The position numbers were made by a program, and so were the translations under genes. The notes beneath the pieces were generated by a model, which worked only from the letters and a program-made list of their open reading frames with translations, was not told where the DNA came from and did not search any database. A stretch of 64,000 bases of DNA from a virus (taxonomy: Duplodnaviria > Caudoviricetes), in the IMG/VR virus record IMGVR_UViG_3300010366_000012, positions 11,012 through 75,011 of that record; one strand, written 5' to 3'. Shown here in pieces: positions 1,165-11,704 of the stretch (its first letter is position 1; the number at the start of each line of letters is the position of its first letter).

Positions 1165-1249
1165 CTCGCCTCTTGCGGGGCATACTGAACGTGTTCCGCT
1201 CGACTTAGCTGGCTGTCCCCGCCCAGCGCCTCTGCGAGAGGCGGGGATC

Positions 1250-4200
1250 ATGGCACGCCCGGTCGCGCTCACACCGCTGCGGGCTGCTGCCGCGCGGCGG
1301 ATGCGGCGCACCGCCCAGGCGCTGGACGAAGATCACCCTGAGACGATCGCCGGGGATCACCTGCGGGATGCCGCCCGGGTGCTGGAGCGCGGGTCCGCTG
1401 ATGGAGCGAAGCGGCACCTCGATGCCGCGATGCAGCTGCTGACGCCGCAGTCCCTGCTGCGGCACGGCATCCGCGATGACGAGGGCCACGCGACTGCCAA
1501 GCACCACATGCACGAGGTTCACCGGCATCACCTCGCGGTGCAGGACATCGAGGACACGGCGGGCAGCAACGACCGGCTGGCCGCGATGGCCCGTGCCGCC
1601 CGTGGCCAGCCCGAGCCGATGGAGCCGTTCCACCGGCAGCCGCCCGAGCTGCTCCCGGCCATCGCCGCCACTGGTGATCATGGGAATCGCGTGATCGACC
1701 TGAAGGCCACGGCCTGGGAGCGCGAAATGCGCGACCGGTATGGCAAATGGGCCGCCTCCCCCGACTTCGCGCCGATCACCTCGATGTTCGCTCCGGGCGG
1801 GCCGCACGGCTTCCGCGGCCACTCGATCGGATCGCAGCCGGAGAAGGGCTCGGTGTTCGGCCGTCACCTGAGCATGCACGAGGCTCTCGGCGCGGCCGAA
1901 GCGCTCGGCCCGGGACACCCGAAGCAGGTGGCCAGCGCGCAGATGGCCGAGCGGGCGGGCCTCCCGAAGTTCCAGCGCAAGGTGTATGACCTGCTGCGCA
2001 AGCGCGGCCGGGGGCACTACGGCGCGCTAGTCCTGGCGCGGGCGACTACGCCCGATGTGTTCCGGGCGGGCACGTTCGCCAACAGCAGCCCGGCTGTGCA
2101 GCTGGCGTTCTGGGAGCACGAGCGGCGCAACGCGCTCGGGGAGTGGACGACCGGCGCGGACCCGCACCAGGCACCGTTCGGCTCGAACCTGCGGCCGGGC
2201 AGCCTCAACCACCTGCGCGCGATCGAGGATCTGTCCCGGCTGACCGGGTGGAACGCCACTGATGGCCGCCCGTCCTCAGACACCTTGCGCAACTCGCTGC
2301 ACCACCTGGCGCACGCGCTGGCGCTGCGCGACATGAAGTCCGCCCGGGTGCATATGGCATCGGCCCGGTGGGCCGACGAGCACGAGGCGGGCGGCGCGTA
2401 CACGCCTGAGCTGGACGCGATCGAGCGCTCTCTCGGCCTGGTGAACGTCCACCGGTCGGCCAGGTGGATGCGCCGCAGCGGCGGCCACGGGCCACATGCC
2501 TACGGGCGCACCGGCACGCCGCTGGAGCCGACGCGGGGCGCGATGCACGTGCCGGTCACCGAAATGATGTCCAACGCCACCGAGCTAGCCGCCCCGTTCC
2601 GCTACCGGCACGGCTGGATCAAGCTGGAGGATGCGAGCCCGCTGGACGGGCGGGTGGTCATCGCCAAGGCGGCGGGCGGCGGGCGGGTCGCGGGCGTCTA
2701 TGACCACGCGACCCGGACCGTGCAGCCCCGGCACACCAAGCGGCTCCCGGTCACCGCCGTGCGGAAGGCGGGCGAAGTGATGTCTGCAGCCAAGACGCCG
2801 CGCGGCCTGGCGAAGTACCGGGCCGCGTATGGCGCATATGGCCTGGCTACCGAGCTGTCGGCACGGACAGGAGCACTTGGAACGTACACTAAGACGTGGG
2901 TAAATGGGACTACGGCAACCGTCACGCGAGGGCTAGGCGGCACCTCGGCTCGCCGCGCAGCCATCCTTGCGCAGATTGTGGCGGCCAGGCGATCCACTGG
3001 GCTACGATCCACGGCCGGGATGGGGAGAGCCCTGAGGACTATCGGCCGCTCTGCAACCCCTGCCACATCGCCTACGACGGCGGTCACGCTGGCGAGCGCA
3101 ACGGCCGGGCCAGGCTCACTTGGAACGAGGTTGCTGAGATCAGAAGGCGGTACGCGGCAGGAGAGGGTGGCTACAGCACCTTTGCCCGCGAGTACGGGAT
3201 CGCCCGGTCAGCCATTGCGGACATCATCAAGCACCGTCATTGGGTTGTCCGCTAGAACTCCCTTCTTGGAGCGCACGCCCGCGCCGCGGGGCCGCCCTGG
3301 CGGGCCGGGCCTGTATCACGTCCAGGGCATGGGCCACACCGCCTACCTGCAACAGGTGGTCAAGGCGCTGATCGAGAAGCGCGGCATGCGGCCGGACAAG
3401 GCGTATGCGATTGCCCGCGCGGCGATCCGCAAGTGGGCGGCCCGGTCGAGGCATCCCGAGGTGCGCGGCGCGGCGACCCGGGCCGAGGCCGGGGAGATCG
3501 CCCGGCAGGCCCGCGCCAAGGCGCACACCGCGGCTGCCTGGGAAGTGGCGGACGTCCTGATCGAGCTGGCGTGCGAGCCGATCGAGCTTTTCAACCCCTA
3601 CCATGCGCCACCCGGCGCTGGCGGCGGGCAGTTCACCACGCAGCAGGGCGCGGGCCAGGGGCAGGCCAAGGGCAGCAAGGCCCAGCGCCGGGCCAAGCTG
3701 GTCAAGCAGATCGCCAGCCTGCGGCGGCAGATCGCGGCGCTCCGGGCGCAGCTCCCGTCCACCTCGCCGCGCAAGCCTGGCAAGCCTGGCAAGTCCAAGG
3801 GCAGCACCCCGGCCAAGAAAGGCGCGGGCGCGCAGTCTGCCAAGCAGGCCAGGCAGGGCAAGCAGTCGGCTAAGACCGCGGCGCGCAAGACCGCCTCGGT
3901 GGCCACGATCCATGCCAAGATCGCCGCGCTGCGGGCCGAGCTGCAGGCCGACATCGCCGCGCTGCGGAAGCTGGCCAACGACCAGCCCGCGATCGAGCTG
4001 ATCGGGGACGGCCACGGGCACCACATCCCCGGCACGCCGGACGTCTACAGCCACGGCTGGCGGCCACTGGCCGGGACCACGATCGGGCCTAAGGGCATCC
4101 GCATTCCGGGCAGTGGCGGTGGTCCCCCAAAAGTCGCTAGCGCGGGACGGGTGCGCGCCGCGGTCAAGGCCGCCCGCATCACCAGGCCCGCGGTCACCCC

Positions 4201-4984
4201 GGCTGCCACCGCACCGGCCGCGCCCAAGCCCTCTGCGGGCGGGACCGCTGGCCTGGCTGCCGCGATGTCCTCTGGCGTGAAGAGCCGCAAGGAGCCCGGG
4301 AAGGCGTCGGTCAGCGGGTCGCAGGGCCTGCAGGGCGGCACCGAGATCGTCACGTTCAACAACGGCGCTCAGTTCGTCCACAAGGACTACAAGTACCTGC
4401 CGCTTCCCCCGGGCCTCCAGCAACTGCAGGCGCAGAAGGAGGTGCTGGCTGCCAAGATCTCCAAGGCCCTCGGCGCGGGAGCGCCGGACATCATCCCCGA
4501 TCCGGGCGGCAGCCCGACCAGTTTCTACATGGCGAAGATCGAGGGAGTCTCCGGCATGGAGAAGTTCAATGGCCCGGCCAGTGGCCTCCAGGGTTCCGAC
4601 GCGGCGGCAGCGGAGAAGTTCTTCAACTCCCCCGAGGGCAAGAAGATCGGGCTGCTGGACATGATCATCGGGCATGCCGACCGGCACCTGGGCAACGTCA
4701 TGGTCACCCCGGACGGCAAGCCAGTCCCGATCGACCACAATGACACCTGGGGCGCGGTGGACCTGAACGGCAACATGGTCACCACCAGCCCGTTTGCCGC
4801 CGAGCTAGAGAAGCAGATGAAGGCGGGCAACAGCCCGTTCAGCGTGGATGACATCGACCGGATCACCGCGCAGGTCAAGGCGCTCCAGCCCGAGTTCGGC
4901 AAGCTGAACTTCGACGCCGGGTCCAGCTACTACAGCATGACGATGAGTGAGCTGGCCCGGATCAGGAAGCTGGTGGCGAAGTGA
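1250..4984 (+). CDS. head-associated polyprotein 1 with C-terminal PI3/4-kinase/HipA-like kinase domain
   Basis: ATG 1250 in frame with track ORF; kinase motifs FVHK, KEVLAAKISKALG, DMIIGHADRHLGNVM..PIDH; repeated [VI][DE]L module boundaries. Confidence 0.75.
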   Translation: MARPVALTPLRAAAARRMRRTAQALDEDHPETIAGDHLRDAARVLERGSADGAKRHLDAAMQLLTPQSLLRHGIRDDEGHATAKHHMHEVHRHHLAVQDIEDTAGSNDRLAAMARAARGQPEPMEPFHRQPPELLPAIAATGDHGNRVIDLKATAWEREMRDRYGKWAASPDFAPITSMFAPGGPHGFRGHSIGSQPEKGSVFGRHLSMHEALGAAEALGPGHPKQVASAQMAERAGLPKFQRKVYDLLRKRGRGHYGALVLARATTPDVFRAGTFANSSPAVQLAFWEHERRNALGEWTTGADPHQAPFGSNLRPGSLNHLRAIEDLSRLTGWNATDGRPSSDTLRNSLHHLAHALALRDMKSARVHMASARWADEHEAGGAYTPELDAIERSLGLVNVHRSARWMRRSGGHGPHAYGRTGTPLEPTRGAMHVPVTEMMSNATELAAPFRYRHGWIKLEDASPLDGRVVIAKAAGGGRVAGVYDHATRTVQPRHTKRLPVTAVRKAGEVMSAAKTPRGLAKYRAAYGAYGLATELSARTGALGTYTKTWVNGTTATVTRGLGGTSARRAAILAQIVAARRSTGLRSTAGMGRALRTIGRSATPATSPTTAVTLASATAGPGSLGTRLLRSEGGTRQERVATAPLPASTGSPGQPLRTSSSTVIGLSARTPFLERTPAPRGRPGGPGLYHVQGMGHTAYLQQVVKALIEKRGMRPDKAYAIARAAIRKWAARSRHPEVRGAATRAEAGEIARQARAKAHTAAAWEVADVLIELACEPIELFNPYHAPPGAGGGQFTTQQGAGQGQAKGSKAQRRAKLVKQIASLRRQIAALRAQLPSTSPRKPGKPGKSKGSTPAKKGAGAQSAKQARQGKQSAKTAARKTASVATIHAKIAALRAELQADIAALRKLANDQPAIELIGDGHGHHIPGTPDVYSHGWRPLAGTTIGPKGIRIPGSGGGPPKVASAGRVRAAVKAARITRPAVTPAATAPAAPKPSAGGTAGLAAAMSSGVKSRKEPGKASVSGSQGLQGGTEIVTFNNGAQFVHKDYKYLPLPPGLQQLQAQKEVLAAKISKALGAGAPDIIPDPGGSPTSFYMAKIEGVSGMEKFNGPASGLQGSDAAAAEKFFNSPEGKKIGLLDMIIGHADRHLGNVMVTPDGKPVPIDHNDTWGAVDLNGNMVTTSPFAAELEKQMKAGNSPFSVDDIDRITAQVKALQPEFGKLNFDAGSSYYSMTMSELARIRKLVAK
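2896..3255 (+). mobile_element. HNH homing endonuclease with C-terminal HTH DNA-binding module, overprinted on polyprotein 1
   Basis: CADC..H..LCNPCH..YD plus GERNGRARLTWNEVAEIRR; lies in a 390-bp segment flanked by a duplicated LSART peptide. Confidence 0.8.
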
Positions 4985-9062: not shown

Positions 9063-10508
9063 GTGACGTCCCCCGTTGTTGATCTTGTTGGCCCCGGGCT
9101 GACCTCTCTGTGCGCTGACTGCGCTGCAGTTGAGCTGGCTGCTGGCGGGCCGCACGGGTTCAAGCACGGCTGGGTCTGTGTCGATCCCGCCAAGTGCGGG
9201 CACCGCGGCGTCAGCGGGCGCGCTCACACCTCGCGGCTGGTCGCCCGCGACGTCCGCGGGCAGCGCGCCCGGCTGAAGAATGCCTCCCCCTCCCTGGCGG
9301 CCAACCGGGCCACGGCGGCGCTGAAGGGCAAGCGGGGCTCGGACTACCAGCACCTGGCCGCCGCCCGACTGCACGCGGCTGCGGCCAGGTCAGCCAGCTC
9401 GCCGGAGCTGAGGGCGCACCACGACCGGATGGCCAAGATGCACCGGGGCATCGCGGTGCGCACTCCCGGCCGGATGACCGGCGCACCGAAGCGGGACAGC
9501 GCGGGCCGCCAGCTCGGCAAGAACGCGCAGGGCGAAACGACCCGCACGATGCCGGACTTCTCGGGCCGGGGCAAAGGCCCCCCGGAGTTCGAGGCCGGGC
9601 GCAGGGCATCGCAGCAGGGCAAGGGTCCATTCCGCACGCCCCGGCCGCTGCCGTGGCCGGGCAACAAGCGCACGCCCCGGCCGCTACCGTCCTACAGCAA
9701 GCCGATTGGCCCCAACATGGGACAGCTGGGCAAGGCTGCCAAGGGCAGCAACAGGAACCTGTCCAAGGCGAACCGGGCCACGGCGTATGCGGCCGGGCAC
9801 GCGCTGCCGCCGCCGAGCAAGGGCGCACCGCACGGCTTCCCGGTGACCAGCCCCAAGTCCTGGGAGGACGCCCGCAGGGCGGTCGGCCGGGTCAAGTCAC
9901 CGGCCCGGCGCGCTCAGCTGAAGGCGCTGCTGCGCCGCACTGCTGCCCAGTACGGCAAGACCAAGGCGCTGAAGGCGTCCTGGGCGGCAGCCAACACACT
10001 CCCCGGACTGGAGCTTGCCGTGCCTGCATCCCTGGCTGTGACCAGCCCCTACGACGTCATGATCACCCGGGCGCAGGACGGCAGCTCTGCAGTGATACGG
10101 CACCGCCGCGGCGGGGCTGAGATCGGGACGATCAAGAGCACCCCCGAGGGCTGGGTCGCGGTCGCTGGCGGGAAGGATCTGGCCCCGCACACCCGCCAGC
10201 GCGCCGCGCTTCTGGAGCTGATCGGGACGCACAACCGGGCCAGCGGGACGCCCTACCACCGGCCGACCGAGCCGCTGCAGCCTAAGCCCGAGCAGACCGA
10301 GCTGATGCGCCAGTACGGCATCCCCGCGATCCGCGCGATGGCCACGCCCTCGGCCGGTGCCGACGACGGACCCCGGGTCACCACGAACGGGCTGAGCCCC
10401 CGGGGCACGGCGATCTACAAGAAGCTGCGCAGCCGGAACTTCCCGCACGAGCGGGCGCACGCCTTCGCCCGGAGGGCGCAGAACAAGATCCGGGGGCGGG
10501 GCAAGTGA
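9063..10508 (+). CDS. head-associated polyprotein 3 (basic, unknown domains)
   Basis: VVDL, AVEL, GLEL motifs and GFKHGW module; GTGA overlap with the protease gene. Confidence 0.7.
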   Translation: MTSPVVDLVGPGLTSLCADCAAVELAAGGPHGFKHGWVCVDPAKCGHRGVSGRAHTSRLVARDVRGQRARLKNASPSLAANRATAALKGKRGSDYQHLAAARLHAAAARSASSPELRAHHDRMAKMHRGIAVRTPGRMTGAPKRDSAGRQLGKNAQGETTRTMPDFSGRGKGPPEFEAGRRASQQGKGPFRTPRPLPWPGNKRTPRPLPSYSKPIGPNMGQLGKAAKGSNRNLSKANRATAYAAGHALPPPSKGAPHGFPVTSPKSWEDARRAVGRVKSPARRAQLKALLRRTAAQYGKTKALKASWAAANTLPGLELAVPASLAVTSPYDVMITRAQDGSSAVIRHRRGGAEIGTIKSTPEGWVAVAGGKDLAPHTRQRAALLELIGTHNRASGTPYHRPTEPLQPKPEQTELMRQYGIPAIRAMATPSAGADDGPRVTTNGLSPRGTAIYKKLRSRNFPHERAHAFARRAQNKIRGRGK

Positions 10509-11704
10509 GCGTAGCGGTCCTGACCCCGTTCACCGGGGATGACGGGACACAGGCCAGCGGTCGCTGGCGGAAGAAACTGCTGCCCATCGGGGAGATCAAC
10601 TACAAGGGCCGGGTGCTGAAGTTCACCCGCGACTACCTGGCCGGGCTGGTGGACTCCTTCCAGCGCCGTGCCTACGACCAGGTGCCGTTCCAGCTGGCTG
10701 ATTCGGCCAACACGCACACGAATGATGTGGAGCGCACCGGGGGCCAGATCACCGACATGTCCCTGGAGCCAGACGGGCTCTGGATCGAGCTGCAGCCCAC
10801 CGAGCGCGGCGCGCGGGTGCTGGCTGACAACCCCGGTGTCGGCGTGTCCGCCCGGATTGTCGAGCAGTACGAGCGCTCGGACGGCGAGCACTTTCCCCGC
10901 GCGGTGCAGCACGTGCTCTGCACGCTGGACCCCCGCATCCCCGGCATGGGCGGCTGGGAAGCCGTCGCAGCCTCCAACGATGCCGCAGAGATCACGATCG
11001 ACCTCTCCGGCGAGCACTTCACAGGAACGGAGATCTCCATGCCGGAGCTGACTAAGGACCAGCAGGACAAGCTGGCCCAGCTGCTGGACCTGGACCCCGC
11101 CAAGCTGGCTGCGCTGGTGGCCAGCCAGGAGGGCGGCGGGATCAGCCCTGAGGCCGTCGCGGCGCTGGACGGTGACGCCGACGCCGACGACGCGGAGGCA
11201 GCCGAGGTGGCCAGGTGGATCGACGGGCTGACCGATGACCAGCTGGCCGAGCTGGAAGCCGAGCTGGAAGCCGAGGATGGCGAGCGCGAGCCCGAGCCCG
11301 CGGCGCTGTCTGGCGAGGACGCCTCCGCGGTGGAGCTGGCCCAGGCCACGGGTGACGAGGCGCTGCGGCAGCTGGCGATCGTCAACGGCCAGCTGGACAG
11401 CGAGCGGTGGCAGAACGAGCGCCGCAAGCTGGTGGCTGCGGGCACCCCGCCGTTCATCGCGGACCTGGCCCAGCCACTGCTGGAGGGCGCGGGCCACGTG
11501 GTGGACCTGGCCAACGGCAAGTCCGTGGACGCCGGGCTGATCGTCCGCAAGATCCTCACCGAGTTCCAGAAGCTCGGCCAGCAGCTCGGCCTCGGCATCG
11601 AGCTGGGCACCGAGGCGGACGAGCCGGAGGACACCACCGTCGAGGACTCCCGCAACGACGTGGTGACCCGGGCCAAGGCGCAGCTGTTTGGCATCCGCTC
11701 ATGA
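10505..11704 (+). CDS. Mu gpI-like prohead protease/scaffold fusion
   Basis: N-terminal LLPIGEINY..FT, VSARI, HVLCTLDPRIPGM motifs; acidic coiled-coil C-terminus; upstream of capsid genes. Confidence 0.8.
   Translation: MSVAVLTPFTGDDGTQASGRWRKKLLPIGEINYKGRVLKFTRDYLAGLVDSFQRRAYDQVPFQLADSANTHTNDVERTGGQITDMSLEPDGLWIELQPTERGARVLADNPGVGVSARIVEQYERSDGEHFPRAVQHVLCTLDPRIPGMGGWEAVAASNDAAEITIDLSGEHFTGTEISMPELTKDQQDKLAQLLDLDPAKLAALVASQEGGGISPEAVAALDGDADADDAEAAEVARWIDGLTDDQLAELEAELEAEDGEREPEPAALSGEDASAVELAQATGDEALRQLAIVNGQLDSERWQNERRKLVAAGTPPFIADLAQPLLEGAGHVVDLANGKSVDAGLIVRKILTEFQKLGQQLGLGIELGTEADEPEDTTVEDSRNDVVTRAKAQLFGIRS

Follow-up and report, generated by a model that had tools for sequence, protein, structure and literature searches.

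Results

Insertion in the P0003 gene

The window analysed here is a 64,000-nt stretch of phage DNA that makes up most of a 75-kb virus record of IMG/VR (IMGVR_UViG_3300010366_000012; about 96% complete, about 70% G+C). Near its start lies the long gene P0003, referred to below as the host gene, which holds an insertion of 390 nt between two sets of codons for the pentapeptide LSART. The inserted segment leaves the host reading frame open and carries, in another frame, P0002, a gene for a probable HNH endonuclease with a helix-turn-helix (HTH) domain. The positions of these features are collected in Table 1.

Table 1. Features of the host gene P0003 and of the element inserted in it (positions in the window).
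Feature	Position	Strand	Description
Host gene P0003	1250..4984 (long open reading frame from 1004)	+	1244 aa; gene-caller product 100% identical
Left LSART copy	2855-2869	+	CTG TCG GCA CGG ACA; host frame; preceded by native GLATE
Element leader	2870..2895	+	26 nt; start of the homology between the window and contig L002
Host-frame read-through of the element	2870..3244	+	125 codons; high content of T, A, G, R and S
P0002, HNH+HTH open reading frame	2896..3255	+	GTG-TAG, 119 aa; -1 (third) frame relative to the host
Right LSART copy	3245-3259	+	TTG TCC GCT AGA ACT; host frame; overlaps the last HNH codons
Conserved linear motif LSARTPFLERTPAPRGRPGGPGLY	3245..3316	+	most conserved stretch of the host family (invariant columns)

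The first-pass annotation of this DNA had proposed that LSART occurs twice at an interval of 390 nt in different codons, that the host frame stays open between the copies, and that removal of the segment restores ATEL-SARTPFLE. All three statements were borne out: the copies are exactly 390 nt apart and in the same frame as the long open reading frame (ORF), there are no host-frame stops between them, and deletion of the 390 nt in silico gives exactly ATEL-SARTPFLE.

The element, about 390 nt in size, consists of the 26-nt leader, the 360-nt ORF of P0002 and a 3' end that overlaps the second LSART copy, the P0002 stop codon TAG (3253-3255) falling within the GCT AGA of that copy. A TAA in the leader (2890-2892) closes the HNH frame upstream of the GTG. 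In the host frame, the insert encodes a peptide that lacks H, C, D and F; its single Asn is not terminal, and the insert ends in Leu.

The insert is located at the exact boundary between the variable N-terminal part of the host protein and the conserved LSART...GPGLY motif. On the sequence, the LSART repeat is a duplication of the first codons of this conserved module and not a chance recurrence. Since the 3' end of the HNH gene overlaps the right copy, the arrangement is most simply explained if the left LSART represents the recipient's own first codons and the right LSART was brought in by the element. The leader also holds, at 2876-2887, a degenerate remnant of the target codons L-E-R-T shifted by one base: CTTGGAACGTAC at these positions is similar to CTTGGAGCGCAC at 3265-3276. 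This likeness is marginal (shuffle p about 0.01-0.05) and hints at an older, longer duplication, of which the remnant would be a trace.

Terminal inverted repeats of the kind found in transposons or miniature inverted-repeat transposable elements were looked for in the element, and none were found. A 26-nt direct repeat (2859-2884 and 3102-3127) was judged to be due to chance; it is not present in L002, another contig that carries the element.

Alleles without the insert and other carriers

The 390-nt segment is identified as an insertion because homologous alleles run uninterrupted across the site, in line with the insertion proposed in the first-pass annotation. About 60 such alleles were found (21 full-length proteins, 11 loci from IMG/VR and 36 of the 38 from JGI metagenomes), and they continue unbroken as ...E-LSARTAMLERTPAPRG... 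across it. The 21 full-length homologues read ...[E/D]-[LMF]SARTAMLERTPAPRG[KR]PGGPGLY..., the region upstream of this motif being highly variable. Natural insert-less alleles have either ...E-LSARTPFLARTPAPR, which is the window's own "PF" version, or ...E-LSARTAMLERTPAPR. The peptide YGLATELSART is identical in the insert-less proteins P0004 and P0010, and GLATE-LSART occurs at the loci L018, L029 and L039.

Three further contigs (L002, L060 and L051) carry the element at the same site, and their HNH genes, together with P0002, fall into two lineages. In L002, a 93-kb ENA contig, the HNH protein is 83% identical to that of the window, the right junction is TVIG-LSART as in the window and the host frame is open; there is no left LSART copy. 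L060, a 32-kb IMG/VR contig, is the clearest case, with a single 978-codon host ORF (1181-4117) that runs through a 399-nt insert with MSARTA and LSARTA at its flanks. Its HNH gene is an ATG-TAG ORF in the third frame (3001-3408) and belongs to the second lineage, being 47% identical to P0002; over its final 44 nt it shares its DNA with LSARTAALERTPAP, which is read in the other frame. The insert-less protein P0014 is 72% identical to the L060 gene, and the homology ends exactly after MSARTA. L051 holds a partial copy, the 3' end of an element of the L060-type lineage, at the contig start. The overlap of the HNH gene with the host motif is 11 nt in the window, 26 nt in L002 and 44 nt in L060, and the L051 gene overlaps the motif too.

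Gene callers give a fused product in the window (P0003) and split the gene in L060 (C-terminal part P0190), L051 (C-terminal part P0194) and L002 (412 + 189 aa). The short "MGHT/MQQIV/MVKAL" calls P0189, P0191 and P0193 probably point to further carriers. For annotation, this means that more hidden endonucleases may be found behind gene calls of the truncated, C-terminal "MGHT..." type.

Two other observations concern the same host gene. In L002, a frame-shifting deletion of about 62 aa lies between two HGW repeats (L002:4470-4560) in comparison with the insert-less P0005, to which the L002 gene is 89-94% identical. On the 32-kb contig L049 (2306-4635), the host gene is truly a "fractured gene", divided among separate ORFs: a stop about 95 aa downstream of LSART is followed by a free-standing HNH gene that has about 350 codons and is related to P0002, and after this gene the host sequence resumes in another frame.

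P0002, a probable hidden endonuclease

The proposal that the -1 frame at 2896-3255 encodes a full HNH and HTH protein is supported by an intact ORF of 119 aa, purifying selection against L002 (see below), a large family and a confident fold model. P0002 aligns end to end with a family whose proteins are about 115-140 aa long, with 4228 representatives at E<=1e-3, and which is characterized by a nearly invariant CxxC...CxxCH arrangement and a C-terminal HTH. Across 35 relatives, C28, C53, C56 and H57 are invariant, C25 is nearly so, and IHG is the consensus.

The AlphaFold2 model of P0002, built from 35 sequences, has a pLDDT score (the predicted value of the local distance difference test) of 91 and shows two strands followed by a helix at residues 34-60. 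For the N-terminal domain, the top Foldseek matches are to Cas5-HNH (prob 0.95 but E 0.06), and VIA-align gives Z 5.0 to the GVE2 HNH 5h0o, a moderate likeness only. The C-terminal domain is an HTH of the Tc3/resolvase type (VIA-align, Z about 6). The PHROG HNH families match P0002 weakly, and a search of PDB sequences with the HNH profile gave nothing significant. Because the Pfam HNH models match remote relatives (PF13392) and not P0002 itself, we regard the assignment of P0002 to the HNH endonucleases, which draws on sequence conservation and on the model, as probable rather than proven.

The P0002 gene is single-copy in the genome. Neither a blastn comparison of 2300-3800 with the phage collection nor locus searches made with P0002 alone and, in the JGI metagenomes, with an alignment of close relatives returned matches. 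In cultured phages, the relatives of P0002 are ordinary free-standing small genes, for example gp70 of Gordonia phage Turuncu. A match in a Klebsiella phage that is annotated "DNA polymerase" proved to be an ordinary small ORF after the polymerase gene.

A TACACT hexamer (2885-2890), noticed by eye, stands 5 nt before the HNH GTG in both the window (2885-2898) and L002 (4990-5003), and might be a -10 box for a leaderless transcript starting at the GTG. In L060, CCTGTAAGTACATG (2990-3003) precedes the ATG of the second-lineage HNH gene and may be compared with TGTAAGTACA, a site upstream of another gene.

Selection on the two reading frames

Comparison of the window with L002 gave different substitution rates for the two frames of the insert. 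In the HNH frame the nonsynonymous rate (dN) is 0.10 and the synonymous rate (dS) is 0.55 (dN/dS 0.18), while in the host frame dN is 0.21 and dS is 0.14 (dN/dS about 1.5). The adjacent host module has dN 0.17 and dS 0.89, the element with its dS of 0.55 being less diverged. Judged by these rates, purifying selection within the insert acts on the HNH frame only, and the host-frame peptide evolves freely.

The G+C content at the three codon positions of the insert is 0.64/0.57/0.77 in the HNH frame and 0.57/0.76/0.62 in the host frame; in the flanks of the insert, the third-position value of the host frame is 0.89-0.91. The codon-position pattern thus follows the HNH frame, and therefore the host-frame peptide of the insert is not a conserved protein. 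Of the earlier description of the segment as dual-coding with atypical codon use, the openness of both frames stands, and the notion of a constrained second protein does not. On the sequences compared, dual coding is present in a weak sense only, in that both frames are open and the host-frame amino acids are not conserved.

From the sequence of each HNH protein and the host codon usage, we calculated how likely the host frame is to be free of stops: the chance is 0.19 for the window, 0.07 for L002 and 0.016 for L060. The corresponding frame is open in 10.5% of 120-codon segments of the window's real genes and in only 2 of 11 free-standing high-GC relatives, a background of about 18%. The copies that lie within the host gene (window, L002, L060 and the visible part of L051) are all in phase and stop-free. 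This constant openness of the in-gene copies, as against two of the eleven free-standing relatives, suggests that the host frame has been selected for read-through; we consider the evidence good, not overwhelming.

Position of the insert in the protein model

The AlphaFold2 model of the host frame from 2567 to 3739 was built from 24 sequences. It has a confident small beta module before the insertion site (pLDDT 78-97) and a confident helical domain after it (pLDDT 76-91). The insert itself is mostly below pLDDT 50, with a weak helix at model residues 127-143 that reaches about 62. As modelled, the element is a lengthening of a disordered linker just before the conserved linear motif.

The motif LSARTxxLERTPAPRG[KR]PGGPGLY (3245-3316) is the most conserved stretch of the family, yet it is modelled as disordered (pLDDT <50). 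This combination suggests a short linear motif for binding or cleavage, not a folded domain.

Discussion

Probable homing and read-through

Overall, we think it probable that the segment is a homing-endonuclease gene of the free-standing HNH-HTH type that has settled in a protein-coding gene, and that it belongs to the hidden, out-of-frame HNH kind exemplified by the ShiLan domain. The endonuclease would be made at a low level from its own GTG, and initiation may be leaderless or internal because no good Shine-Dalgarno sequence precedes it. Its HTH would recognise the conserved DNA that encodes LSARTAMLERTPAPRG in insert-less alleles, so that 3245-3316 marks the probable DNA target. During co-infection, the enzyme would cut an insert-less allele, and the element would be copied in by recombinational repair (homing). 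Homing of this kind has only indirect support, from the dN/dS of 0.18 in the HNH frame, from the lower divergence of the element (dS 0.55) than of the flanking module (dS 0.89) and from the patchy distribution.

The host protein would be translated straight through the element, with the approximately 125-130 extra disordered residues tolerated as a longer linker, and only frame-open copies would persist. For the downstream modules, including the kinase-like domain at the C-terminus, a covalent link to the conserved N-terminal domain is probably required. The recurrence of in-phase, open inserts in two HNH lineages argues that read-through translation of these genes is real and selected.

Several points weigh against this explanation. 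There is no Shine-Dalgarno sequence at a useful distance from the GTG at 2896, and a consensus scan of 2600-3500 found no sigma-70 promoter, nor any terminator, the lack of a promoter being the point that counts here. The insert-bearing lineages may share one ancestral insertion, and the carrier cases are therefore not fully independent. The host gene of L002 may be decaying or misassembled. Finally, the free-standing relative on L003 also has an open frame, so openness could partly be a codon-usage trait that existed before insertion.

A possible split or decay of the host gene

The host gene could instead be functionally split, dispensable or decaying, its N-terminal part with the insert peptide being a by-product of no relevance and its C-terminal part being made separately, for example by re-initiation at the TTG at 3245, which overlaps the HNH stop by 11 nt. 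The leader has a third-frame L-E-R-T-L-R-R-G-stop whose TAA (2901-2903) makes it overlap the HNH GTG, which in our reading would suit an ancestral three-cistron split. Moreover, the larger related HNH gene of L049 truly splits the same host gene, which there stops about 95 aa further on; the N-terminal part in L002 is frameshifted; and the gene callers divide L060 and L051 in just this way.

What this explanation fails to account for is the absence of any host-frame stop in the window and in L060, which makes a fused product the default, and the recurrence of in-phase, stop-free inserts, for which the background is about 18%, in both HNH lineages. A separately functioning C-terminal part would also fit poorly with the 49 loci that were read, none of which has a stand-alone module gene starting at LSART; wherever a contig end does not truncate the locus, the frame upstream is open for 65 codons or more, and for over 190 in most cases. 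A split host gene is thus unlikely in our judgement.

Possible excision of the peptide by a protease

The first-pass annotation had proposed another fate of the read-through peptide, namely excision by the head protease of the phage. In the form considered here, the prohead protease, or another protease, would clip it out at duplicated [E/D]-[LM]SART boundaries and leave junk-free modules. The host protein does have the look of serial modules, each starting behind a recurring A-[TV]-E-L header, and E or D stands directly before [LMF]SART in about three quarters of alleles. L060 is acidic at both copies (...ID|MSARTA ... LE|LSARTA), and L051 likewise has LE|LSART at its right junction. In addition, the HNH tail T-G-A of the P0030 clade is the other-frame image of the conserved host-frame L-E-L before SART, a correspondence that hints at host-frame selection at the right junction.

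The window and L002 fit this scheme poorly. Their right junction is VIG|LSART, so the proposed re-creation of a cleavage site by the right copy finds no support: G, and not the E or D of most natural alleles, precedes LSART. Either acidic residue is in fact excluded there, because GAR or GAY would put TGA in a Trp codon of the HNH gene. The missing left LSART copy in L002 also counts against excision. Searches of Pfam and PHROGs gave nothing for the genes at 9063-10508 and 10505-11704, and no protease gene or specificity was established. We consider protease excision improbable, and tolerance of the peptide as a linker the more likely of the two.

A specific form of this proposal, which we rate as somewhat of a long shot, is that the duplicated [E/D]-[LM]SART sequences are working processing sites of a capsid cargo polyprotein, from which the maturation protease would excise the endonuclease-derived peptide. 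If so, a homing endonuclease would be able to live in an important structural gene with the help of a protease and without an intein. The endonuclease lineage would then have co-evolved with one linear motif, its C-terminal tail being written over the host L-E-L-S-A-R-T codons.

Possible removal at the RNA or translation level or by protein splicing

It is very unlikely that the segment is removed at the RNA or translation level, as an unrecognised self-splicing intron or by ribosome bypass. Structural genes of actinobacteriophages do hold introns with HNH ORFs (Pope et al. 2013, as cited in PMC11855218), and the insert is similar at its 5' end to the sequence that follows the site, as is sometimes the case with group I introns. 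However, the HNH ORF takes 360 of the 390 nt and leaves only 30 nt outside it; Rfam gave no match at E<=10 in 2500-3700; and shuffled sequences fold just as well energetically (z 0.36). The open host frame also counts against an intron, because an intron would not need one. Ribosome bypass or frameshifting was rejected, as no slippery site, stop or matched pair of take-off and landing codons is present at the left junction.

A non-canonical intein or mini-intein with an out-of-frame homing endonuclease is effectively refuted: the 130-aa insert is of mini-intein size and is followed by Ser, and out-of-frame endonucleases are known from actinobacteriophage inteins, some of them in minor capsid genes (bioRxiv 10.1101/2025.01.02.630785), but the insert peptide has no His, Cys or Asp, its lone Asn is not at the end, it ends in Leu and not in Asn, Gln or Asp, no Pfam Hint or intein model matches it, its dN/dS is about 1.5 and its pLDDT is below 50. 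The earlier statement that intron and intein signatures are lacking thus agrees with the Rfam, fold z-score, Pfam and peptide-composition results, all of which were negative.

Comparison with known systems

Homing with read-through, the explanation we prefer, has a close precedent. The ShiLan domain, which has a patchy distribution, is inserted in mycobacteriophage DNA methylases at a conserved site, in frame and without a stop; the third-frame HNH gene in it starts at a GTG 18 bp in and ends within the final 4 nt (Arsenault, Gosselin & Gogarten 2025, Genes 16:178, PMC11855218). That insert's first 11 aa are similar to the 11 aa that follow the site, features of an intron or intein are lacking, and the domain was proposed to be retained in the protein (PMC11855218). 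The element in P0003 shares these properties: an in-frame, stop-free insert at a conserved site, patchy among close relatives and free of intron and intein features; a third-frame HNH gene that fills the insert, with its GTG near the 5' end and its stop at the 3' end; and first insert residues that repeat those after the site. Disorder or looping-out of the host-frame peptide is predicted in both cases.

The two cases differ in the host, which is a modular protein assigned to the virion or head module here and a methylase there, and in the endonuclease, which is an HNH+HTH protein of 119-135 aa here and a protein of 195 or 160 aa with zinc fingers there. In a tblastn search of the phage collection, the P0002-type HNH was not detectably similar to the phages of PMC11855218. 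The insert is 390-399 nt long here, compared with 606 nt, and the HNH 3' end overlaps the host motif by 11-44 nt here. Here, too, two HNH lineages (47% identical) occupy one site, and the sequences come from uncultured high-GC phages.

The arrangement as such is therefore already published, in 2025, for mycobacteriophage methylases; what is new here is the host gene and the smaller HNH family. The present case extends the hidden-HNH arrangement from non-essential methylases of cultured mycobacteriophages to a virion-module protein of uncultured phages. The comparative evidence that it provides was lacking in the published cases: two lineages at one site, both in phase and open, and both overlapping the most conserved motif of the host. 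Our results suggest that hidden-HNH elements can persist for a long time.

Free-standing homing endonucleases are also known to split phage genes, as mobE does in nrdA of phage Aeh1, and similar "fractured genes" have been described (Dassa et al. 2009, PMC2677866). As in those cases, a free-standing-type HNH gene is inserted here in a coding region at a conserved sequence, members of its family are found between genes (on L003 and as Turuncu gp70), and L049 is a true split. Unlike them, the host gene of the window is unsplit, with no stop or restart signals and no split-intein halves.

Inteins of actinobacteriophages with out-of-frame or antisense homing endonucleases retain their splicing domain (Gosselin et al., bioRxiv 10.1101/2025.01.02.630785). 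The likeness lies in an in-frame insertion with an endonuclease in a frame other than the host's, and minor capsid genes are among the hosts; catalytic residues and a Hint or splicing domain are absent here.

Selfish insertions made harmless without RNA or protein splicing form a further point of comparison, since the element in P0003 would be one of them. The bypass cassette of phage T4 gene 60, with mobA, is a selfish insertion in a coding region that is crossed by a 50-nt hop, and Rickettsia palindromic elements are selfish repeats translated in frame. Unlike gene 60, P0003 has no bypass signals, and its insert is far longer than the 50-nt hop; unlike the Rickettsia elements, the insert encodes its own mobility enzyme.

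Host gene and genomic setting

P0003 looks like a large modular protein of the head or virion module, as judged from its layout and neighbours. A conserved N-terminal domain of about 110 aa is followed by variable middle modules, the LSART...GPGLY motif with the helical domain, and a kinase-like domain. The last gives the sole Pfam match of the protein, PF00454 (PI3/PI4-kinase-like) at the C-terminus, with 28.8 bits against a cut-off of 27.1. The gene is preceded by a MuF-like gene (21-734), and its 3' neighbours are a gene for a DUF7178 protein, a capsid-like gene and tail genes.

The C-terminal end varies among relatives, with PF00454 in the window (4600-4984) and PF12120 in the homologues P0007 and P0023. 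By analogy, this variable C-terminus resembles the swappable ends of MuF-associated polymorphic effector proteins.

An A-[TV]-E-L header recurs in the window (1250-2854) and in the homologues P0004, P0005, P0009 and P0010, where it opens successive modules; 3-8 residues after it stands [YF]-R-[YH]-[KR]-HGW or GP(K/H)G(Y/W)xHGW. The header is likewise found at the N-terminus of a separate gene, 9063-10508 (seen in 9063-9200; AVELAAGGPHGFKHGW). Such a recurrent header could serve a capsid cargo system as a motif for processing or docking.

The relative of P0002 on L003 (2024-2827) is also worth recording. This free-standing HNH gene, whose product is 64% identical to P0002, directly follows an N6/N4 DNA methylase gene, and its +1 frame is open for 268 codons, far past the HNH gene on both sides. 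As the published hidden-HNH cases sit in methylases, the locus may merit a look of its own.

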